Notes: generated by a model from the sequence alone, not told the origin. Positions 18,865 through 32,925 are shown, counted from the stretch's first letter. The stretch: 64,000 nucleotides of DNA from an uncultured Prevotella sp. (GCA_944320255.1 CALUGU010000002.1:10706-74705), one strand, 5' to 3'. Numbers and translations are program-made.

Positions 18865-19587
18865 TCAGGCGTTCTTCTCCTTCCCGACGTTCAAAAGGAA
18901 AAGAGGATTGCCGATGACATACCTGCGCCACATCCTGCGCGGCTCTTTCACTAAGCGGTAAAGCCATTCGAGCGAATGCTCCTGCCACCAGCGCGGGGCC
19001 CGCTCGTAAGTCCCGGCGAAGAAGTCGAACACCGCGCCTATCGTCCCCACGTGGCAATGGATGTTCAGTTCGTCCCAATGCGAGTAAGCCCACTTCTCCT
19101 GCTTTGGCGCCGTCATGCCTATCCAAAGCAAATCCGGGTCGGCGTCGTTGATGGCTTTCACTATCGCGCGGTTGTCCTCGTCGCTGAACTCCGGCTTGTA
19201 AGGAGGCGAATACGTCACCACCTCAATGGCCGGATACGCCTTTTCAGCTTTTTCTACGATTAAGTCCAACACCTTCGGCGAGCTGCCCATGAACATACAC
19301 CGTCCGCCTGTCTCGTTGAGCCTTGCCATCTCGAACTCGAACAAGTCCCAGCCTGCTACGCGCTCCCGTGGTTGCGATTTGCACTTCAGCCATCTGCAAG
19401 CCTTCACTATGCTCGCCCCGTCAGGTATCAGATAGTCGCCCCGACTCAACGCCTCGGCAAACAGTTCATCCTTTTGCGCCGTGTTGAACGAGTGCGCGTT
19501 TATCGTGTTTATCAGCACCTTACCCTGCGGAATGTCCGCCAAGGCCGCCTTTGACTCAAGGATGGTCAAGTCACTTAGTCTAAGCAT
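18865..19587 (-). CDS. WecB/TagA/CpsF-family glycosyltransferase
   Basis: INTINAH, LIPDGAS, ERVAGWDL, LWIGMTAPKQE, GAVFDFFAG, LEWLYRL. Confidence 0.92.
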   Translation of the reverse strand: MLRLSDLTILESKAALADIPQGKVLINTINAHSFNTAQKDELFAEALSRGDYLIPDGASIVKACRWLKCKSQPRERVAGWDLFEFEMARLNETGGRCMFMGSSPKVLDLIVEKAEKAYPAIEVVTYSPPYKPEFSDEDNRAIVKAINDADPDLLWIGMTAPKQEKWAYSHWDELNIHCHVGTIGAVFDFFAGTYERAPRWWQEHSLEWLYRLVKEPRRMWRRYVIGNPLFLLNVGKEKNA

Positions 19588-19633
19588 CGAATTATTTAAT
19601 TTGCATTATACGGGTTGCATAATTTCTTTATAT

Positions 19634-20674
19634 TCACTCAGCCAATTCAGCGTATATACGCCTAATCTTAGCATTTACATTGTTAACATTAAAAATCGTC
19701 TCAGACAATTCTGTAGACTTCAATGAAATCCGGTCTCTCAAGTCTGCATCTGACATCATCCGCTCCATTTGCGTAGCCAAGGCATTAACGTCGCCAGGAG
19801 CAAACAGCAGCATATTAACGCCGTCTTGCGCCACGTCTGGAATACCGCCTACAGGAGTGGTCATCACAGGCAAGCCATAAGCCCAGGCATCGAGCACCGC
19901 CATCGGGAAGCCCTCGGCGTAACTCGGCAAGCAGAACACCGACGCTTCCTTGAACGCCTTGTCCTTCGCCTCGCCAGACACCCAGCCCAAGAACACCGTC
20001 TGCTCCGCTATGCCAAGCCGCGCGGCCAACGCCCGCCCCTGCTCCACTTCGCCATTACCTGCAAAAACAATCTGCCAGTCATGGAAGTTTCCGGCAACCT
20101 TGGCAAACGCCTCAATCATATCCTTATACCCCTTGCGGGCGTTCACCGTACCGGCATAAAGTATTTGTTTCTTTTTCTTATAAGCACGTGGATACGCCTT
20201 TGCCGTGCAAGGGTTATACACCACACGCACCTTGCCATTCAAATCGAAAGCCGCAGTCACGTATTTCTTCCAAGTTTCTGAAAGCACTATCACAGCATCC
20301 GCTTTCGTGAAAAGGTAGCGGTAAACGTTTTTATACTTTCCGTTTATCGTGGTGTCGGGCGAAAAGGCGTGGAAATGCACTATCACTTTTTTACAGGCCA
20401 GCTTTGCCAACGCCATAAACAAGCATTTGCGCATGGCCGAAGGCGGTTCGCTTGTATGGATGTGAACAATCCTGCACCACGGCAACAGGACAACAAACTC
20501 AAACAAGCCCTTCAACAAATAAACCAATTTCCACACCACCCCGCGGTCGATGTGCGTCTCAATCCACCTGCAATGGTACTCCTTCCACTGCCTGCCCGTC
20601 TCGTGCGCTTTCACAACTGAAGTTATGCCGCCTCGCGTCTTGCGCGACGTGGCGACAACAAGAACCTTTGTCAT
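19634..20674 (-). CDS. Glycosyltransferase family 4
   Basis: GT-B fold: LYAGTVNARKG, FCLPSYAEGFPMAVLDAWAYGLPVMTTPVGGIPD. Confidence 0.9.
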   Translation of the reverse strand: MTKVLVVATSRKTRGGITSVVKAHETGRQWKEYHCRWIETHIDRGVVWKLVYLLKGLFEFVVLLPWCRIVHIHTSEPPSAMRKCLFMALAKLACKKVIVHFHAFSPDTTINGKYKNVYRYLFTKADAVIVLSETWKKYVTAAFDLNGKVRVVYNPCTAKAYPRAYKKKKQILYAGTVNARKGYKDMIEAFAKVAGNFHDWQIVFAGNGEVEQGRALAARLGIAEQTVFLGWVSGEAKDKAFKEASVFCLPSYAEGFPMAVLDAWAYGLPVMTTPVGGIPDVAQDGVNMLLFAPGDVNALATQMERMMSDADLRDRISLKSTELSETIFNVNNVNAKIRRIYAELAE

Positions 20675-20708
20675 ACTAATTCGTATTTTGACTGTGGGTT
20701 ATCAAAAA

Positions 20709-20840
20709 GGAGTTAACAGTAGAGACGCAAAATTTTGCGTCTGCATAACGAACAAATGTCAAGTTGCTGTAAGATATGGTATTATCCGTTAACTCCGGCG
20801 AGTGAAACGAGTCTGACTCCTGTTAACTACTGATAACTCC
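20709..20840. repeat. GGAGTTA-lattice element with terminal inverted tracts (homolog at 54144..54284)
   Basis: Shares CCGTTAACTCCGGCGAGTGAAACGAG exactly, plus AACGAACAAATG and ACTCCTGTTAACT, with the second copy. Confidence 0.8.
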
Positions 20841-21276
20841 AGAATTATGATACACCTTCATTAGAATGTAACAGGCCTGATAACACCGAATTTTAACAAC
20901 CGGTTAATCCATTCACAATCGCTTTCCTTGAACGCCTGCGGCCATATCCTTGCCAAACAACGCAACACGTAGGCAACTATCAAGATTTAAACAGAATTCT
21001 TTATCACCTGTCATTTTTTGACATAATGCTCTGGTTTGCAGCAATTTACATTCTGACAGAGAAGCAATGTACCTGTCAGCAGTCCATACACCTCGCCTGA
21101 CAGAGGCTGACACTCGCCTTAATCATCTGTCAGCCGGTAACAGGCTGATTATCTGCCAGTTGCACAGAAACTGACAGATGACGGGAAAATACGATCGTTT
21201 TATATGATTATGTAATTACGAAATGCCGCCAAATACATTGCAAGACACGGTGTTTCGCCTTGCCGTTTGCGGCCTT

Positions 21277-21654
21277 TCACACGGCAAAAAGCCGCCTTTG
21301 GTTTTCCAGCTCCTCACGCTTCAGCCTCTCGCCTTCAGGATACAGCTGCCTTTCATGCTCAAGAACCTCGTCAACAGAGAACCTGAACTTAAGCACTTTT
21401 GCCGGCACGCCGCCGATAATGGAATAAGGAGGACAGCTCCGCGTCACCACGGCACCGGCCGCGACAACCGAGCCACGGCCGACGGTGACGCCGGCCAAGA
21501 GAGTCACATTTATGCCAAACCAAGAGTCGCCTTCTATCACAACGTCCTTATCATCGTCCGCACTCTTGCCATAGTCGCCGTCGAACATGAAACGACCTAC
21601 ACATTTCACGTTATGGTTGCCTGTTATTATCTTCAAATAAGGGGCTATCCCCAT
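21277..21654 (-). pseudogene. Hexapeptide-repeat O-acetyltransferase, apparently 5'-truncated
   Basis: IITGNH...[51 protein letters not shown]; an in-frame TGA lies 7 codons upstream of the ATG, so the usual N-terminal part is absent. Confidence 0.55.
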
Positions 21655-21727
21655 TTCATATAAAGGAATACTCCTTCATCGCACAAATCAATGTTTTATG
21701 TAAAATTCAGATAGTCTCAAATTCTTT

Positions 21728-22891
21728 TCAGCCACCAATAACTTCATTATAAAAATGTATATATAATTCTGCTATATTATCCGGTGAATATCTGTTTAGA
21801 TTGCTTACATTAATTCTTTCATCGTATTTTTTATTTTTAATTATCCATTTCATTTTCTCATACAAATCGTCCTTATCTTTTTTGTTAAAAATGCACCCAT
21901 ATTTTAAATCTTTTACAATATCAATAAGACCTCCACTATTTGCCACAAGAAGATAAATATTGTGAGCGGCAGCTTCAATTGCCACTCTTCCAAAAGGTTC
22001 TGGCCATAATGACGGGATAATTAAAATATCTATATTTTGGAAAAAGACATTGCTCTTTTGATACCCCATAAATGTAATTCTTGGATCTTTATATCTTGAC
22101 TTTAAATAAGTCATATACGTTTTGCTGCCATTTCCTGCAACATAAAAATGAGCACAAGAATCTTTTACACGGAGAAAACTGTCTAATGCTAATTCCAACC
22201 CTTTAGCTTTAACAATCCTACCAATAAAACCGAATCTTATATTTTTATAACTCACATTTTTTTTCTTTTCCACTGTAAGGAATGGGTTAGGAATTATTGA
22301 TTTGCATATTGCATTCTTAAAATATCCATTTTGTAAATGAATATTAAGTATAAAGCTGCTGACACCTACAACTCCATCCACATAATTTGAATATTGTTTT
22401 TTTGAGAGATTAAACATTCTACACAACAAACATTTTCCATTACAAGAACAACCATATCTTTGTAAAGAACGAGCACAAACAAGATAATAATCTCTTAATG
22501 TATGAATTATTGGTATATTAAGTTTTTTAATTTGCCGCCATAGTACACATGAGAAACCTTGAATGCAATTTGTATGTACGATGTTGGGGGCAATTTCATT
22601 TATTATTGAGGAAATTTTATTTGCAGACTTAACATCATATAAATCATTCATCATCCATACAAACTTTCTTGCTTTACTCCATTCAAGAGTCTCTATAAAT
22701 GAAGTTTTATAAAGTTTTACATAATAAATTGTATAAGAATCTTTTACAATTATTTCATCCTTATCGCCTTGCGTTATAACATAAACGATATGCCCTTTTT
22801 TACTTAAACATTCAGCTAAAATACGCGTAGATATTTGAGAGCCTCCATTAATGTTTGGCCAATATACTGAATTTATTATTGCTATTTTCAT
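21728..22891 (-). CDS. Glycosyltransferase family 4 (AT-rich)
   Basis: GGSQIS, FGFIGRIVKAKG, IIPSLWPEPFGRVAIEA. Confidence 0.88.
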   Translation of the reverse strand: MKIAIINSVYWPNINGGSQISTRILAECLSKKGHIVYVITQGDKDEIIVKDSYTIYYVKLYKTSFIETLEWSKARKFVWMMNDLYDVKSANKISSIINEIAPNIVHTNCIQGFSCVLWRQIKKLNIPIIHTLRDYYLVCARSLQRYGCSCNGKCLLCRMFNLSKKQYSNYVDGVVGVSSFILNIHLQNGYFKNAICKSIIPNPFLTVEKKKNVSYKNIRFGFIGRIVKAKGLELALDSFLRVKDSCAHFYVAGNGSKTYMTYLKSRYKDPRITFMGYQKSNVFFQNIDILIIPSLWPEPFGRVAIEAAAHNIYLLVANSGGLIDIVKDLKYGCIFNKKDKDDLYEKMKWIIKNKKYDERINVSNLNRYSPDNIAELYIHFYNEVIGG

Positions 22892-24044
22892 TACATTTTA
22901 TTTTAGCAGTTACAATGTATGTAAATACGAAAGCCATCCAAAATGGATATGAGCGTTGCAATAAAAGAAGGAAAAATAAAAAAATATAACCAAAAACTTC
23001 TTTTTTATTTATAGTTCGCATTCCCGTAAGCAAATAAAATAAAAATATAATTATATATGAGATTATACCATACCTCATTATAAAAACTTGAAAACCTGGT
23101 CCAGACGCATCTAAATCTTCAGTAGCCTGTTTACCTATACCCCAAAACAACTCAGAGGAAGTTAAATTAATAAATGACATTCGTGCTCCATAGTTGATTC
23201 TATTGTTTCCTGAAATTCCACGTTCTTCATCAAATTCCAATCTCTCAATAATTAATTCATTCACCAAATTTCTTCCATCATTGTATGATCTAACCATATA
23301 AAATACAATGAAACAAGATATTGACAAAGTGAGGACATTTAATATTGAGACCTTATTCTGTATTTTTATTAATAAAAATCCCAACCCACACAGAACATAA
23401 GCCGCAAGTGAAAACGTAAAGCACAATCCAATAAACAAGATTACTACAAATTTATCACGGAAATCAAATTTATTAATATACAACAGCAATGATATTACCA
23501 TACCCAAATGCCCCGGCTCACAAAAAACGGAATGAAATCTATAATGGTAAAAATCATTTATCAATAATATCCCATAATTATAATATTTATAAATTGAAGC
23601 TGCGCCTTCGTAAGTAATCTGCCCTAATGAAGGTAAATAACCTATAAGAAGAATTATAAAATAAAGCGGAAGTGATAGCAATATAATTATTGCCAAATTT
23701 TTAGTAAAACAATGCAAGATTGAATATTTATAAACATTCTTCATGAATAGTAAAATAAATACGATTAAAGCATAAATTATGCAAGAAATACATTTCTCAA
23801 TACTTTCAAAAGCATCGTAAGCAAAAACCTCTCCTATAAAAAATAAAAATATAAGCCAATAGTGATGTTTTCTATTCGCATAAAAAACATATGGATATTT
23901 ATTTAACATTAACAATAAAATTAAAAATATGAACAAGTAGAAAAAGCCACTATTAATATACCAAAACAAGTAAAAATTCATTGATTTAATAAATCCTATA
24001 AATAGTGCAAATTTCAACAATCTGAATAATTGTCTTTCTCTCAT
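22848..24044 (-). CDS. wzy: Polysaccharide polymerase Wzy-like membrane protein (AT-rich)
   Basis: About 10 TM helices, RFHSVFCEPG motif, large periplasmic loop; lies between glycosyltransferases near wzx. Confidence 0.65.
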   Translation of the reverse strand: MRERQLFRLLKFALFIGFIKSMNFYLFWYINSGFFYLFIFLILLLMLNKYPYVFYANRKHHYWLIFLFFIGEVFAYDAFESIEKCISCIIYALIVFILLFMKNVYKYSILHCFTKNLAIIILLSLPLYFIILLIGYLPSLGQITYEGAASIYKYYNYGILLINDFYHYRFHSVFCEPGHLGMVISLLLYINKFDFRDKFVVILFIGLCFTFSLAAYVLCGLGFLLIKIQNKVSILNVLTLSISCFIVFYMVRSYNDGRNLVNELIIERLEFDEERGISGNNRINYGARMSFINLTSSELFWGIGKQATEDLDASGPGFQVFIMRYGIISYIIIFLFYLLTGMRTINKKEVFGYIFLFFLLLLQRSYPFWMAFVFTYIVTAKIKCNENSNNKFSILAKH

Positions 24045-24919
24045 ACTTTACTTTTTAGGTAACTAAATAAATCAAATATAAACTGCTTGTATGAAACTAG
24101 ATTGTAATAATATAGAGTTTCATTGATAAGAAAAAAAAGATTTATATCATACGCTTTTTTCAATAAACCAAAACAATCGTTCTTCTTATCATCCATTCCT
24201 TTTTTATGTAAAAACATATTTCGCTTTGCACGTTCTTTAATTCTCGAATGAATAACTTCTTTTGATAAAGTGTATGATAAGCTATTAGAACTTATTGTTA
24301 TGACATAAATTATATCTCCACAGACCTTTATATTCTTTGCATAAAAATCAGCTTTTGTAGAAAATAGGATGTCGTTTCCAGATACAACTTCTTCAAAAAA
24401 AATATTGTTCTCTATCAAAAAATCGTATCTAAACACCTTATTCCAAACATCAAAGATTTTAAATCTAATATCAACAGATTTCATTAAATAATTCGATATA
24501 TGCCGATTTATTAATGTATTGCGATTTGCAGGTTCCAATGTTTTTGAATCACAACTATCGACCATATAATAAAAAATATCATAATCATATTGTTTACTAA
24601 CAATATCATTCAAAATTTTACGTAGATGTTCAGAATAAAAGTCATCAGCATCTGCAAATAGTATCCATTTCCCATTAGCGTGTTGCAGGCCAATATTTCT
24701 AGCATATCCAGCACCTTTTCCTTCTTTTGTTAAATAGATTTCCGTATTTACTCTATCTTTTCCTGGGAAATTATTAAAATCAACAATTCTTGAATCACTG
24801 TCATCATCAACAATTATCACTTGGATGTCATCCCTATCTGGTATAGAATCTATACATCGTTGCAATAATTTTGGAGTATTTTTATGCGGTATAATAATAG
24901 AAAAGTTGTAGTTCTTCAT
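24041..24919 (-). CDS. Glycosyltransferase family 2 (AT-rich)
   Basis: SIIIPHKN, IIVDDDS, GAGYARNIG, ILFADADD. Confidence 0.92.
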   Translation of the reverse strand: MKNYNFSIIIPHKNTPKLLQRCIDSIPDRDDIQVIIVDDDSDSRIVDFNNFPGKDRVNTEIYLTKEGKGAGYARNIGLQHANGKWILFADADDFYSEHLRKILNDIVSKQYDYDIFYYMVDSCDSKTLEPANRNTLINRHISNYLMKSVDIRFKIFDVWNKVFRYDFLIENNIFFEEVVSGNDILFSTKADFYAKNIKVCGDIIYVITISSNSLSYTLSKEVIHSRIKERAKRNMFLHKKGMDDKKNDCFGLLKKAYDINLFFLINETLYYYNLVSYKQFIFDLFSYLKSKV

Positions 24920-24943
24920 TTTTTATTATTTTCTAACTAACAA

Positions 24944-26482
24944 TCATTTGACAATTCTATGCAAATAAGAAATGATTTTATCATTAATTTTAACTCGTTC
25001 CATCGACGTTATTCCACACAAATATACAATTATAGCTACAATCGAACAAGTTATGAAAGATGTTAAAATAAACGCACCCAAACTTACAGGAAAAAGATTA
25101 TTTATATAATGAGCACTCACAATACAGAATGTTCCAAGTACAAGATTTTTTCCAACTACTTTAACAGCAAAATACCGAAGCCTGTAAACCGGAACTAATC
25201 GCTTTAATACGATGAAACGAGCAAATAACCCAATCAAAGTAACCAATACCGTCGGATACATTGCCATATATGGCTTTCCTCCAAAAAACAGTATCAAATA
25301 AGCCAATGGGAGTTCGCATAACATAATTATACAAATTAATATTTGAAAAAACTTTATATTACCCGTTGCGTGTAATGCGGTAACCAACGGTTGCGACATA
25401 GAATTGATTAATGCGGAAATCAAAGCTAACAACAAAAATGTAGATGTGTATTCTGGAACTATTCCTAACCAAAGTTTCAATAGATAATCAAGATTAATCA
25501 TCACAGGAATCGAAATAAATGCTAGCAGGAAGAATGAATAACGACAACCGGCGTAAACAAGCCTGACGCTTTCGGCTGTGTTGCCTGCGGCGTATTGTTT
25601 GGTTATCTGTGGGTTCAGGGCCATCATAAAGTTTGTTGAAAAGCCTGATATAATGCCGTTTACCTGCAACGCCACTCCACGCGCGGCATTGACGACCGTA
25701 CCGAAAAACAGGTTAAGGATGACGTTCGCCACTTGGTCTTTGAACGAAAAGCCCAAATTGCCGACCACGCTCCAACCTGCAAAGGAGAACATTTCCCTAA
25801 ACAGGCTTTTGTCAAAGCTGAAACGGTAGGTGCATTCATCAAAATGGCGTTTGCAATAAATGCCGTATGTGAGCCTGACGACCAACGCAACGCCAAACAC
25901 GAGGACGCTATAGATAGTCAGTTTATCATAGTTTATCAAAAGCAACAAATAGACAATAAGCAGCTTCAACGCAACCTCAAGTATGCTGATATACGCGAAA
26001 GCGTCCATGTGTTCATGGGCTACGATGCATGAATTGTAAGGCACGCTGACGACAGTAAGCATGAACGTGAATATCGAGCATTGGTAAACCCAGTTAGCCG
26101 CAGTCATGCGTGAGGGGTCGATGTTCAAGTGCGTGTTAACAAACCAAAGACCGACAGTCTCCGCCACGACAAATATTATCACTGCAAGCACGGCATGGAT
26201 TGTCACCGACGTGCAAAATATCTGCTTAAGACGCTGCCGGTCGCCACGGCCAAGCTCGAACGATATGAACCTTTGCGAGGCCGCCGTCAACGCGGAATTG
26301 AGGAATGAAAGCATGGCGACAATGCCGCCGACAACGTTGTAAACGCCGTAATCGCTCACTCCCAAGGTGTTGAGAACCACGCGGCTGGTATATAACCCAA
26401 CCGCAATGGTCAACAACATCCGGAAGTAAAGCAACAGCGTGTTTTTGGCAATACGCCTGTTGTTCCCCATTGTTTGAGACAT
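24944..26482 (-). CDS. wzx: Wzx/MATE-like polysaccharide flippase
   Basis: RIAKNTLLLYFRMLL...SRVVLNTLGVSDYGVYNVVGG; 12-14 TM helices. Confidence 0.88.
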   Translation of the reverse strand: MSQTMGNNRRIAKNTLLLYFRMLLTIAVGLYTSRVVLNTLGVSDYGVYNVVGGIVAMLSFLNSALTAASQRFISFELGRGDRQRLKQIFCTSVTIHAVLAVIIFVVAETVGLWFVNTHLNIDPSRMTAANWVYQCSIFTFMLTVVSVPYNSCIVAHEHMDAFAYISILEVALKLLIVYLLLLINYDKLTIYSVLVFGVALVVRLTYGIYCKRHFDECTYRFSFDKSLFREMFSFAGWSVVGNLGFSFKDQVANVILNLFFGTVVNAARGVALQVNGIISGFSTNFMMALNPQITKQYAAGNTAESVRLVYAGCRYSFFLLAFISIPVMINLDYLLKLWLGIVPEYTSTFLLLALISALINSMSQPLVTALHATGNIKFFQILICIIMLCELPLAYLILFFGGKPYMAMYPTVLVTLIGLFARFIVLKRLVPVYRLRYFAVKVVGKNLVLGTFCIVSAHYINNLFPVSLGAFILTSFITCSIVAIIVYLCGITSMERVKINDKIISYLHRIVK

Positions 26483-26491
26483 AAGCCTGTG

Positions 26492-27742
26492 TCAGTCGCG
26501 CCGGAATATGTCCCTCGTGTAGACCTTTTCTTTCACGTCGTCGAGGCAGGCGTCGTAGCGGTTGGCGATGATGGCCTGGCTCTGCTGCTTGAAGTCGTCG
26601 AGGCTGTTGACAACTTTGCTGCCGAAGAACGTGGAGCCGTCGGCGAGGGTAGGTTCGTAGATGATGACTTCCGCGCCCTTGGCCTTGACGCGCTTCATCA
26701 CGCCTTGGATTGACGACTGGCGGAAGTTGTCGCTGTTAGACTTCATCGTCAGGCGGTAAACGCCGATGACGCAACGCTTTTCTTCATCCGGATTAAAGTC
26801 GCCGCGGTTGTAATAGTCGTAATACCCGGCCTTGCGGAGCACGCGGTCGGCGATGAAGTCCTTGCGCGTGCGGTTGCTCTCGACGATGGCCTGGATTAGA
26901 TTTTCAGGCACGTCGGCGTAGTTGGCCAGCAGCTGCTTGGTGTCTTTTGGCAGGCAATAGCCGCCGTAGCCGAACGAGGGGTTGTTGTAATGAGTGCCTA
27001 TGCGGGGGTCGAGACACACGCCGCTGATGATGGCCTGCGTGTCGAGTCCTTTCATCTCGGCGTAGGTGTCAAGCTCGTTGAAATATGACACGCGCAGGGC
27101 GAGGTAGGTGTTGGCAAAGAGTTTCACGGCCTCGGCCTCAGTAGTACCCATAAATAAGGTGTCTATATTTTCCTTTATCGCCCCTTCCTGCAACAAGGCG
27201 GCGAACTCGCGGGCGGCTTTGTCGAGACGCTCGTCGCCTTCGGGACGGCCTACGATTATGCGACTGGGGTAGAGGTTGTCGTAAAGGGCCTTGCTTTCCC
27301 GCAGAAATTCAGGTGAGAAAATGATGTTGTCCGAAGACATTTTCTTCCGTATCATCTCTGTATATCCTACCGGGATGGTGCTTTTTATCACCATTATCGC
27401 TTTCGGGTTGACGCTTTTCACCAACGAGATTACTTCCTCCACGTGGCTCGTGTCAAAATAGTTTTTCACGGGGTCGTAATTCGTCGGTGCTGCTATGACC
27501 ACATAATCGGCGTCGGCGTAAGCCTTGGCACCGTCGAGCGTGGCTGTCAGGTCGAGGTCTTTCTCGGCAAGATATTTCTCAATGTAATCATCTTGTATCG
27601 GCGACTTGCGCTGGTTTATCAAATCTACTTTTTCGGGAACAACGTCTACAGCCGTGACATGATGGTGCTGGCTGAGGAGCGTCGCGATGCTAAGGCCTAC
27701 GTAGCCTGTGCCGGCTACGGCTATTTTCAAATTCTTATCCAT
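26492..27742 (-). CDS. ugd: UDP-glucose 6-dehydrogenase
   Basis: Start refined to [16 protein letters not shown]; [34 protein letters not shown]. Confidence 0.95.
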
Positions 27743-27810: not shown

Positions 27811-28827
27811 TTACATCGCCTTTCCATACTCCTCCAGGTCGGCGATGACGTCGCGCTGCTTGGGCGTCAGCTTGGTTTTGTCCCAAAGGGCGGTGACGGC
27901 CTCGGCGGCGCGGCGGTGTTTAGGGTCGCCCGTGGCGGCGTACATCGAGGCGAGGATGAAAGCGCGGGTGGTGGCGTTGGTGACGGCGGGCAGGGCGGCG
28001 CGGCACTCCCAGGCGTAATAGTCGCGGCGGGCGGCGTCGCCGAGCACGGCGTGGCTCATCATCATGAAGGCCAGGTATTTGGCGCGGATCTTGTCCGACG
28101 GTATGCTCACGCCGCCGAAGCGGGCCACGAAAGCCTCAACGTGGCGACGGTCGGCGGCGGCCACGCCCTGCGGCGTAAGGCTGGCGCGCATGGCCCGGCG
28201 TATGCGTGGATAGTAGCTGTCGAGCTTCTTGTAAAGGTGCTTGCCGTCCTTGGCGAAGGCTATCACCTTGATGTATTCGGGACGCACCGTGAGCGTGGAG
28301 ACGGTGAAGCGGTTGCACACGTCGATGACTACGCAGCCGCCGTCTTTGCCTTTCTGCGTAAGCAGCACGCCCTCGACGCCTGAGAAGGGCCCGCCCATTA
28401 TCCTCACCCTGTCGCCCTTGCCAAGCGTGGCGCGGCAGGGCGGCAGACAGGGCATCGTGCCAGCCAGGGCGGAGGCTATCAGCTGCATCATGCGCATCTC
28501 CGGGTCGCCGACGTAAAGGTAGTCGCCAGCGGCGGCTGTCTTAGTGCGGCGTATCGGGTTGTAATGCGGGTGCGCCCGGCGGAACCCGCTGATTTCAGCC
28601 GCATCCAGGCGGACGAACACATAGTTGAGGTAAAGGGGCTTCTCTACAAGGCGCGCCTTGCCGCCCGCCTTGTCTACGTCAATGAACACGGGCGCGAAGT
28701 ATTCAAGCGGGGGCAGGAAATCCCTGCGCCGGCGGCGGTCCTCGGCGTCGAGCTCGTCCTTAGCCTTGTTGTTCGACTTAGGCAAACGGAATATATACCA
28801 ACGTTTTTCTTGTTTTTGTGTTGGCAT
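27811..28827 (-). CDS. upxY: UpxY/NusG-family transcription antiterminator with a C-terminal helical (UpxZ-like) extension
   Basis: NGN domain (WY..., [15 protein letters not shown]), KOW ([18 protein letters not shown]), then about 145 extra residues; first gene of the polysaccharide operon. Confidence 0.85.
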
Positions 28828-28968
28828 CAAAAAACGTATAAGCGCAGTCCTCTCCTTTACCAGATTGTGTAACTATCTGATATACAAAGGTTTTACTGAA
28901 ACAGCCGTACAACTTGGGAAAACTTTCAAAATAATGCGTCCAAGAAGCCGGCGTTTTACCGGAGCCGC

Positions 28969-28976: not shown

Positions 28977-29186
28977 CACGAGGCAGACATCCTGCTGCAA
29001 AAGTAATTAAAATATCAGAAATAATGTACGCTTCATATAGAAAAATATTCGTTTATTTGTTTTTTTGCCGTAAAAAAGAGGAAACAAAGCTGTAGGAAAA
29101 CGGGCAAACGGGCTGGCAAGGGACGAGGAGACAATCCTGCGGGGGACAAGCGAACAAGCGGACGAAGGCTGGCGGCTGGCTGAACA

Positions 29187-29384
29187 CCCCCTATCGGGCA
29201 TCAGGCCGCATAAGTCCGGATATTGCATACACTCATACTCTTTGCCTGACATAAACACATGGGCAGCCTAAAGGGCTGACGACCGATTGGGGTTAAACCC
29301 AAATCGGTCATTAGACTTTATCCGTATTTCGTGCTGCCGTCAGGCAGATTGTTTTTAGTGGCCTGACGACCGATTGGGGTTAAA
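29187..29384. mobile_element. Two tandem MITE-like units separated by TTAAA
   Basis: Unit B 29298..29379 (CCCAAATCGGTCATTAG...CTGACGACCGATTGGGG) has TTAAA on both sides; unit A 29187..29292 has a degenerate left end and the same right end. Confidence 0.6.
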
Positions 29385-29387
29385 AAC

Positions 29388-29424
29388 AAAAGAGTGGCGG
29401 ACAAGCTGCCTGTCCGCCACTCTT
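29388..29424 (-). terminator. Intrinsic terminator of the glyQS-FKBP operon
   Basis: 14-bp IR AAGAGTGGCGGACA/TGTCCGCCACTCTT with an adjacent A-run. Confidence 0.8.
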
Positions 29425-31817: not shown

Positions 31818-32063
31818 TCATATGGCGTTAATCTCGTCAAGAGACAAACCCGTTATCCGGGCTATTACATCAGGAGACAAACCCAGCCGTTTCGCATTAC
31901 GCGCATTATCCAACTTTTCTTCCGCACGGCCCTCTGCACGGCCCTCGTTTCTCGCATACGCCTCGGTGACGAGGTTGTCACGGTAGATCTTGATTGCCTC
32001 GTCATACTTCATACGGTCTTCCTTTGACAGGGCTGATATGTCTTTTATGTCTTCAATCCTCAT
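31818..32063 (-). CDS. Small protein copying the Rpn C-terminal domain (RpnS-like), 81 aa
   Basis: ATG at 32063, 1 nt after the Rpn TAG; MRIEDIKDISALSKEDRMKYDE...EGRAEGRAEEKLDNARNAKRLGLSPDVIARITGLSLDEINAI. Confidence 0.65.
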   Translation of the reverse strand: MRIEDIKDISALSKEDRMKYDEAIKIYRDNLVTEAYARNEGRAEGRAEEKLDNARNAKRLGLSPDVIARITGLSLDEINAI

Positions 32064-32064
32064 A

Positions 32065-32925
32065 CTACAAGGCGGTAATCTCGTCAAAAGACAAACCCGT
32101 TATCTGGGCTATTACATCAGGAGACAAACCCAGCCGTTTCGCATTACGCGCATTATCTAACTTTTCTTCCGCACGACCCTCTGCACGGCCCTCTGCACGG
32201 CCCTCTGCACGGCCCTCGTTTCTCGCATACGCCTCGGTGACGAGGTTGTCACGGTAGATCTTGATTGCCTCGTCATACTTCATACGGTCTTCCTTTGACA
32301 GGGACGCGATGTCTACAATCTCCTCCAACTTCATAAACACTGCTTTTTTAGCCTTGAAAGGCAACCTTTCCAACACTTCCATATTCTTCAACACATATAT
32401 CCAACGCTCAAAATCAGTCTCACACTCACTTTCGTCCTTGTTGAACGACGGCAACTGCAAGAACACATAGCGCATCTTGTCACTGAAAAGCTCATAGCTG
32501 TCACGGTCGGCCAGCACAACATCGGTGCGCAACTTGTCGGGCAGTCCGTCAAGGCGGAAGTTCATAAAGAACACGCCGTAAACGGCCTTCAAGTCAAACA
32601 TCCAAGACGCGCCGCGCTCACCCTGCCTCACCACCGCCTGCGACACGTAATAAAGCGCACGCTCGCGGAAATTCTGCTGCCGGCGGTTCTGCATTTCCAC
32701 GATAAACTGCTCGCCGTCCTCGTTCGTGCAATAAATATCGTAAATACAGCTCCTGTCCTCGATGGTGCCGCCAAGCACTTCCTTATCGAGGAAACGGATG
32801 TCTTTGATATGTTTCTCGCCCACAAGCAGACTGTTAAGGAAGTCTATCAACAAATCTTTGTTGATTTCTTGCCCGAAGATGCGCTTGAAGCCCACGTCCG
32901 TGAACGGATTGATAAACCTTGCCAT
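32065..32925 (-). CDS. Rpn-family PD-(D/E)xK nuclease (annotated as putative transposase)
   Basis: FINPFTDVGFKRIFG, IYDIYC...FIVEMQ, RALYY, YVFLQLPSF, FERWIYVLKNM; EGRA repeats and HTH-like tail. Confidence 0.9.
   Translation of the reverse strand: MARFINPFTDVGFKRIFGQEINKDLLIDFLNSLLVGEKHIKDIRFLDKEVLGGTIEDRSCIYDIYCTNEDGEQFIVEMQNRRQQNFRERALYYVSQAVVRQGERGASWMFDLKAVYGVFFMNFRLDGLPDKLRTDVVLADRDSYELFSDKMRYVFLQLPSFNKDESECETDFERWIYVLKNMEVLERLPFKAKKAVFMKLEEIVDIASLSKEDRMKYDEAIKIYRDNLVTEAYARNEGRAEGRAEGRAEGRAEEKLDNARNAKRLGLSPDVIAQITGLSFDEITAL

Follow-up and report, generated by a model that had tools for sequence, protein, structure and literature searches.

A NusG paralogue with a UpxZ-like C-terminal domain at the head of a polysaccharide operon in an uncultured Prevotella sp.

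The upxY and upxZ genes, which lie in canonical loci in the order upxY then upxZ, are the model for the expression of one capsule at a time in gut Bacteroides. A 64,000-nucleotide stretch of DNA from an uncultured Prevotella sp. (GCA_944320255.1 CALUGU010000002.1:10706-74705; hereafter, the window) contains a gene for a NusG paralogue at the head of a polysaccharide operon, which raises the question of whether the activities of both proteins could reside in one polypeptide. The initial annotation of the window had proposed a UpxY antiterminator bearing its own UpxZ-like domain, and our analysis upheld this proposal as remote homology and a common fold, but not as membership of the UpxZ family PF06603.

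UpxZ binds non-cognate UpxY proteins directly, and in a high-confidence AlphaFold 3 model it occupies the surface of the NGN domain that serves the clamp helices of RNA polymerase and the upstream DNA, so that recruitment is blocked (PMC11685472). UpxY of B. fragilis is recruited to RNA polymerase paused at an opsX element of ~40 bp, with a pause hairpin and a non-template YGCGNAGCR hairpin (PMC11685472).

The protein and the relationship of its tail to UpxZ

The open reading frame (ORF) is listed at 27811..28830 on the minus strand and encodes 339 amino acids from a TTG codon. The ATG one codon further on (28827) was taken as the real start, giving a 338-aa product, because a 98% identical homologue (P0001) starts at the same ATG and because gene calls on 12 independent metagenomic contigs, with the same neighbours, give exactly this 338-aa product. 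Residue numbers given here follow the 339-codon numbering from TTG, and 1 is to be subtracted for the ATG start. The description of NGN and KOW domains followed by about 145 extra helical residues proved accurate, and the C-terminal sequence quoted in the initial annotation was found at the C-terminus of the ORF. The extra residues are 192-339, for which AlphaFold2 predicted seven helices (198-217, 225-238, 246-262, 266-282, 286-300, 303-313 and 323-338) with a predicted local distance difference test score (pLDDT) above 90.

The family was assembled by a word-index search that yielded 28 homologues of 280-406 aa, and the resulting alignment of 29 sequences, including the window protein, served for the full-length AlphaFold2 model (pLDDT 85.8, predicted template modelling score (pTM) 0.71). 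A model of the tail alone reached a pLDDT of 91.7 and a pTM of 0.86. In the full-length model, the KOW beta-barrel ends at the strand 187-191 and the pLDDT falls to 68 at residues 191-200, suggesting a hinge. The family alignment showed invariant columns at F192, H198, Y200, K202 and S205 and near-invariant ones at K201 and D204, and an F..RF motif of the tail was also conserved.

A profile of 20 family tails (A2) was compared with 177,635 distinct PDB sequences. The sole significant match was chain A of 4EPZ (E=1.2e-5), which is the Bacteroides uniformis UpxZ BACUNI_04315 ("transcription anti-terminator antagonist UpxZ") and a genuine member of PF06603. Profile positions 71-151 paired with 4EPZ residues 66-151 with no gaps in the last ~70 positions (...GYSETYDEELAHEAHQLIETWNISDLTDEQKEIIEELRNFE), and Y, T, D, A, W, L-T, Q, I and L stood in register. 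The gapless alignment to the C-terminus of UpxZ that had been claimed for this protein was thus reproduced at the profile level, where reversed and shuffled controls failed.

With 4EPZ as the seed segment, 34 UpxZ proteins were collected, all of which carry PF06603. Profile-profile comparison by hhalign placed tail positions 62-152 of A2 on positions 56-151 of 161 in a profile of 21 UpxZ proteins, with a probability of 91.1% (E=1e-6). The probability was 93.3% (E=2.7e-7) with 53 unique full-length UpxZ proteins from metagenomes, and again 93.3% with a deeper tail profile (44 diverse sequences; effective number of sequences (Neff), 6.1). The controls, a reversed profile and 20 column-shuffled UpxZ profiles, gave at most 2.2%, with scores of at most 19.9 compared with 44.8 for the real pair. 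The profile match foreseen in the initial annotation was therefore obtained by way of the UpxZ proteins themselves (E=1.2e-5; 91-93% by hhalign, with E=1e-6 to 2.6e-7).

The proposed structural comparison of an AlphaFold model by Foldseek had the same outcome, with the UpxZ crystal structure as the top match. Against the PDB, 4EPZ was the only significant non-NusG match of the full-length model (E=4.6e-4), and for the tail-only model it ranked first (E=1.4e-3, probability 1.00) with a template modelling (TM) score of 0.62/0.62 over 142/154 columns. The runner-up in the tail search had E=0.3, about 200-fold worse, and was followed only by generic similarities to tetratricopeptide repeat (TPR) and 14-3-3-like proteins. 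Since the profile search, the profile-profile comparison and Foldseek are three independent tests and agree, the tail is very probably a remote homologue of UpxZ, and this across the whole UpxZ fold.

The alternative view, a resemblance to UpxZ by convergence or chance in a NusG paralogue extended by unrelated helical repeats, can draw on the missing PF06603 match, on an insignificant pairwise BLASTP result and on the TM score itself, a modest value for all-helical folds that goes with 13% identity. It nevertheless appears very improbable, as the three methods picked out UpxZ alone from whole databases while the reversed and shuffled controls failed. In addition, a hidden Markov model (HMM) of genuine UpxZ put the long-form proteins first among the thousands of ORFs of 24 fetched loci and the window, the single matches being weak, and the order of the fused domains equals the canonical gene order, upxY then upxZ.

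Several observations weigh against the functional explanation preferred below or call for caution. The PF06603 check proposed at the outset was negative: even with E values up to 10 allowed, neither the window protein nor its tail gave a match, nor did any of the 20 family tails or of 10 short fragments with the tail alone. A precomputed PF06603 match was present in 0 of the 28 homologues, and BLASTP of the tail against one UpxZ was not significant (E=15). The similarity detectable at the sequence level is limited to the C-terminal ~90 residues, i.e., the last four helices, while in hhalign the most strongly conserved tail parts (the hinge, the first helices and GKHxYKKxDS) had no sequence counterpart in UpxZ. 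The last two helices, with the most UpxZ-like motif, are absent in 12 of the 29 family members (forms of 280-298 aa), and this motif therefore cannot be essential to the common role of the family. The window protein scored 65.8 bits with the UpxY model NF033644, below the curated cutoff of 100. No GCG..AGC or YGCGNAGCR element of the ops type was recognizable in the window leader. A single locus per genome was seen in each of 19 different assemblies, a count to be read with the caveat that these are metagenome-assembled genomes (MAGs) found with clade-specific search patterns. Because PF06603 does not recognize the tail and pairwise similarity is nil, the binding properties of the tail may not be conserved with those of UpxZ. 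As regards descent, the negative PF06603 scan is a limit of sensitivity and not a lack of homology; Pfam and pairwise BLAST are blind to the tail, and the family is consequently annotated just as "transcriptional regulator".

The N-terminal half of the window protein has the two-domain NGN-KOW fold of NusG-like proteins, as shown by Pfam (NusG PF02357, 23.1 bits, above its gathering cutoff of 22.2; the KOW motif was also matched) and by the AlphaFold2 model, whose N-terminal half resembled RfaH and NusG structures of the PDB in Foldseek (8phk_P, 9a56_B and 5ond; E down to 2.5e-6). NF033644 was the best NCBIfam match (E=4.5e-18), aligning residues 11-187 with positions 1-164 of the 164 in the model. 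It was also the top-scoring family for each long form tested; relatives reached 68-107 bits and only P0016 (107 bits) passed the cutoff. The models for RfaH (TIGR01955, 42 bits against a cutoff of 144.5) and housekeeping NusG (TIGR00922, 13.8 bits against 135.7) did not reach their cutoffs, and the scores for RfaH, LoaP and NusG were all far below that for UpxY. Judged from these scores, the window protein belongs to a divergent subgroup nearest UpxY. The KOW domain is the best-conserved part of the family, with 56-93% identity where the NGN domain and the tail fall much lower. At depth, the values were 56-60% for KOW, 20-25% for NGN and 22-31% for the Z-like half, so that two parts, NGN and the C-terminal Z-like half, have diverged side by side and faster than the rest.

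The operon, its leader and the relatives of the regulator

The coordinates of the features are collected in Table 1.

Table 1. Features of the regulator gene, its leader and the downstream operon (window coordinates)
Feature	Position	Strand	Description and basis
Wzx/Wzy-type polysaccharide operon	18865..27742	minus	UDP-glucose dehydrogenase (Ugd), MatE-type flippase, family 2 glycosyltransferase (GT2), Wzy-like protein, family 4 glycosyltransferase (GT4), acetyltransferase remnant, GT4, WecG-family transferase; Pfam scans and ORFs
Long-form upxY-like gene	27811..28827	minus	338 aa and stop; NGN, KOW, hinge and UpxZ-like helical domain; ORF, NF033644 as best NCBIfam match
Tail part with sequence-level UpxZ homology	27820..28092	minus	residues ~247-337, last four helices, W...LT..Q..I..L motif
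Seven-helix UpxZ-like domain	27814..28239	minus	residues 198-339; AlphaFold2 tail model and Foldseek
Predicted hinge and family signature F-x3-G-K-H-x-Y-K-K-x-D-S	28216..28257	minus	residues 192-205; alignment and pLDDT dip
KOW domain	28258..28422	minus	residues ~137-191; Pfam KOW, modelled beta-barrel, strands 140-191
NGN domain	28465..28803	minus	residues ~10-122; PF02357 and AlphaFold2 fold match
Conserved leader hairpin, 8-bp stem UAUCAGAU/AUCUGGUA, with invariant TATCAGATAGTT	28858..28882	minus	~30 nucleotides before the ATG; candidate pause hairpin
Invariant leader 15-mer AAGTTTTCCCAAGTT	28911..28925	minus	candidate recruitment or pause element
Candidate Bacteroidetes-type -7 promoter element TACTTTTG (TAnnTTTG)	28998..29005	minus	read from the sequence; kept as TTACTTTTGCA in relatives
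Intrinsic terminator of the upstream FKBP gene	29390..29424	minus	16-bp stem and T-run; insulates the operon

The regulator heads a polysaccharide operon both in the window and in relatives at 66-83% identity. The statement that the locus has no separate upxZ gene held up: the HMM of genuine UpxZ found no other ORF in the 64-kb window (ORFs of at least 50 aa; best others, E=7.2 and 9), and the start of Ugd (27742) follows 68 nucleotides past the stop codon of the regulator. The glycosyltransferase, Wzy and flippase stretch (22000-26000) has a GC content of 28-33% in a genome of ~56%. In an 83% identical relative (P0002, locus L027), the same GlyRS-FKBP-regulator site is followed by a wholly different biosynthetic cassette. 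The locus has the appearance of a hypervariable polysaccharide cassette, exchanged horizontally behind a regulatory gene that is conserved.

Two other stretches of the window were noted. The operon has a gap at 20675-21727, where only a 125-aa ORF (21277-21654, minus) is followed by ~600 bp of non-coding DNA; from our own reading of its sequence, we take this ORF to be like the C-terminal part of a hexapeptide-repeat acetyltransferase, and it is probably a decayed gene. On the other side of the regulator (31818-32925, minus), a 286-aa ORF carries a tandem repeat, (GRAE)n, close to the C-terminus, and the next ORF (89 aa) repeats its C-terminal ~85 residues almost exactly, as a partial tandem duplication.

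TACTTTTG is assigned as a putative -7 element from the Bacteroides consensus. It is followed by a leader of ~160 nucleotides with two invariant blocks. The first, AAGTTTTCCCAAGTT, was invariant in five leaders of genes whose proteins are 55-83% identical, although the flanking DNA had diverged, and it occurs once in the window, where 0.1 matches are expected by chance. The second forms part of a hairpin that appeared in the minimum free energy fold and, by analogy with opsX, is a candidate pause hairpin; the whole leader was not unusually stable (z=-0.39). Since the leader has the hairpin but no GCG..AGC element, it can be regarded only as a candidate recruitment site. No further copies of the leader motifs, as possible trans targets, were found in the window; the 12-mer TATCAGATAGTT had one match with 1 mismatch, inside a coding region. 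An invertible promoter was also rejected, as there is no recombinase upstream and the only flanking repeat, a 13-nucleotide pair with 85% identity, was taken as chance. The stretch that separates the FKBP terminator from the operon promoter (29271-29390) contains two copies of a ~31-nucleotide element (GGGCTGACGACCGATTGGGGTTAAACCCAAA) with an internal palindrome, which in look is similar to repetitive extragenic palindromic (REP) sequences or miniature inverted-repeat transposable elements (MITEs) and is not conserved in the leaders of relatives.

An HMMER search of 1.84 billion representative sequences with the tail profile gave 184 clusters, 91 of them at E up to 1e-10. The tail was placed past residue 150 in 115 of the best 150 matches, in proteins of roughly 290-400 aa. 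Stand-alone tail proteins were considered as missing links and rejected, as the short matches are fragments. Three of them reach back to profile position 1 and have their N-terminus within KOW; in all the others, the first residue already matches the middle of the profile. None of the 24 fetched loci, nor the window, had a stand-alone copy of the tail. The tail domain is known only fused to NGN-KOW. Matches in genomes came from Prevotellaceae, Muribaculaceae (Sangeribacter), Bacteroidaceae and MAGs of other Bacteroidales, and the gene looks to be single-copy per genome in the clade of the window. In the literature searched, no paper connected UpxZ with a NusG paralogue fusion. We regard the NGN-KOW-[UpxZ-like] architecture as a variant of the UpxY/UpxZ system, widespread in Bacteroidales and so far unannotated.

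The neighbourhoods of the relatives were of several kinds. A 66% identical relative (P0003) lies upstream of a TIR-domain gene, Ugd, an epimerase, Wzx and Wzy, and P0006 sits after a tyrosine recombinase. On an Alistipes indistinctus plasmid, a 349-aa "transcriptional regulator" of the same architecture heads an rfb locus. Other relatives are lone genes in housekeeping neighbourhoods, outside polysaccharide loci. One stand-alone member lies between a gene of the glycine transporter family and cutC, and in a Prevotella clade of 298-aa short-tail forms (L009, L013 and L016-L019; e.g., L013 3117-8192), the gene order is malic enzyme/PTA fusion, Maf, regulator and convergent xseA (exonuclease VII large subunit). 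This conserved housekeeping synteny suggests that the short-tail protein acts as a global, trans-acting RfaH-like factor in those species.

The TIR gene is of the CAP12/Pycsar-effector type (PF10137, E=1.8e-36) and lies between the regulator and Ugd in 66% identical relatives (L001 7397-8380, L025 9505-10380 and L026 9525-10400), where it constitutes a defence-type gene inside the head of a polysaccharide operon.

Long forms also occur in Parabacteroides distasonis, of which one strain had five matches of this N-terminal type. The three examined (351-373 aa) each follow a site-specific integrase (tyrosine recombinase) and precede capsular polysaccharide (CPS) genes. They are just 27-30% identical to the window protein, and their tails align with the window tail (GKHvY..LD ... 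LYGCT ... W; tail HMM, E=1e-18 to 1e-21). It has been reported that no upxY of P. distasonis is coupled to upxZ, which was termed surprising (PMC9409006), and that 10 of the 12 CPS loci of the species start with a "transcriptional regulator/NusG" and not with an annotated UpxY (PMC12118408).

In the CPS loci of P. distasonis and A. indistinctus, a family of ~130-aa proteins (HLYCTGPYWVAFERSAYQL...YPFPVVMVSVTD) is encoded directly after the long-form regulator (L022 6045-6425, L023 6034-6423, L024 6092-6493 and L021 6184-6579), where it occupies the "Z position". It was considered as a cryptic UpxZ and rejected, with an hhalign probability of 0.1% and no match in the PDB, Pfam or NCBIfam. A 170-aa gene after the L027 regulator did not align convincingly with this family (25% identity). 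A near-identical plasmid of ~98-104 kb, common to many Bacteroides and Parabacteroides (L020, B. uniformis pMMCAT; ~98 kb in eight other species), carries a canonical 192-aa UpxY behind an integrase, heading an MraY/Wza/Wzc polysaccharide locus without UpxZ; no UpxZ was adjacent to the annotated UpxY on the Bacteroides plasmids.

Proposed function and its alternatives

The window protein probably acts as an antiterminator of its own operon. By homology with UpxZ, it is somewhat likely that the tail is an NGN-binding module, whereas autoinhibition in cis as its main role is suggested only tentatively. The best explanation of the whole, for which we claim a little less than an even chance, is an operon-specific UpxY-type NusG paralogue with a tethered Z-like domain that masks NGN. 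The NGN domain would bring the protein to RNA polymerase that pauses within the conserved leader, and the bound protein would make transcription of the long operon processive. The Z-like domain would bind the clamp-helix-binding face of an NGN domain, most likely its own, in cis, because it is tethered to it. The factor would stay autoinhibited until the cognate leader signal frees NGN, which is the logic of RfaH with another domain. Where a genome has many paralogues, as in P. distasonis, the Z-like domain could also bind rivals. A role in cis is favoured in the clade of the window by the apparent single copy per genome, by the rfaH-like stand-alone members and by the parallel divergence of NGN and the Z-like half.

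A different division of labour, in which NGN-KOW activates its own operon and the fused Z-like domain sequesters the other UpxY-type factors of the cell, would secure one polysaccharide at a time with a fixed 1:1 ratio of activator to inhibitor. Such an inhibitor in trans is a direct extrapolation from UpxZ function (PMC11685472), and the fast divergence of NGN and the C-terminal part of the tail is as expected of specificity determinants. P. distasonis, moreover, has several long-form paralogues in one strain, those examined each heading a CPS locus of its own, and upxZ was not found in the species (PMC9409006). For the window protein, we nonetheless consider it unlikely: the 19 genomes of its clade yielded one copy each, several relatives lie outside polysaccharide loci, and the high local concentration of the NGN domain in cis would compete with targets in trans. 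For species with many paralogues, inhibition of rivals in trans is equally attractive as a role in cis.

The tail might also be homologous to UpxZ and yet have another partner, serving as a positive accessory module that contacts RNA polymerase, NusA, the ribosome or the leader RNA or DNA for recruitment specificity, with UpxZ as a later offshoot that gained NGN binding. The best-conserved tail parts (the hinge and first helices, with GKHxYKKxDS and F..RF), for which UpxZ has no sequence counterpart, are consistent with such a role, as are the short-tail members, which lack the most UpxZ-like helices and are yet kept in syntenic housekeeping positions. The recruitment of Bacteroides UpxY, too, depends on a pause hairpin and on extended contacts over ~40 bp of ops DNA, and the leader is conserved here. 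However, Foldseek offered nothing beyond 4EPZ except generic TPR/14-3-3-like similarities (E of at least 0.3), and this account seems to us as improbable as that of an inhibitor in trans.

A more far-reaching scenario can also be put forward, although it is rather doubtful. The fused form would be ancestral and more widespread in Bacteroidales, with the tail as an intramolecular gate of NGN; free UpxZ would have arisen by fission, turning an autoinhibitor in cis into the inhibitor in trans of the capsule hierarchy, and in species such as P. distasonis, with many paralogues and no upxZ, the fused domains would themselves perform cross-locus control.

If true, the fusion of Y- and Z-like domains would be independent "Rosetta-stone" support for the Y-Z interaction and would hint at the origin of UpxZ. 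It would also offer an answer for the capsule loci of Parabacteroides and many Prevotellaceae that have NusG-like first genes and no upxZ, loci which have been called surprising or ascribed to an "alternative NusG-mediated mechanism" (PMC9409006, PMC12118408). It raises the testable idea that RfaH-style autoinhibition evolved a second time in NusG paralogues, with a different domain. As P. distasonis, which is cultured and genetically tractable, has the same architecture, the idea is directly testable. The ~184 clusters are now labelled "transcriptional regulator" or "hypothetical protein", and a new domain model would improve the annotation of capsule loci in Bacteroidales.

Comparison with known systems

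With UpxY (NF033644; B. fragilis UpaY-UphY), the window protein shares NGN and KOW over the full model and the place as first gene of a polysaccharide operon. It differs from UpxY in being about twice as long, owing to the C-terminal 145-residue domain, in having no adjacent upxZ and in a leader with no evident ops-type GCG..AGC element. With UpxZ (PF06603, 4EPZ), the tail has in common the fold, the W-x4-LT-x-Q-x2-I-x2-L motif and the place right after a UpxY unit; UpxZ, however, is a separate protein of ~150-160 aa encoded just downstream of upxY, whereas the window domain is fused in frame to NGN-KOW. The "Transcriptional regulator/NusG" genes of P. distasonis are like the window gene in their architecture, tail and first place in CPS loci, and unlike it in having several paralogues per genome, a recombinase before them and the conserved ~130-aa gene after them. 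RfaH of E. coli is likewise a specialized NusG paralogue for long surface-polysaccharide operons, and some members of the present family are lone genes like rfaH. The mask of RfaH is the KOW domain itself, refolded to an alpha-hairpin, whereas in the window protein the model shows KOW as a beta-barrel, with the helical domain as an extra unit. We propose that an RfaH-like logic would nevertheless apply, in which the helical module masks the RNA polymerase-binding face of NGN until an ops-type signal is encountered.

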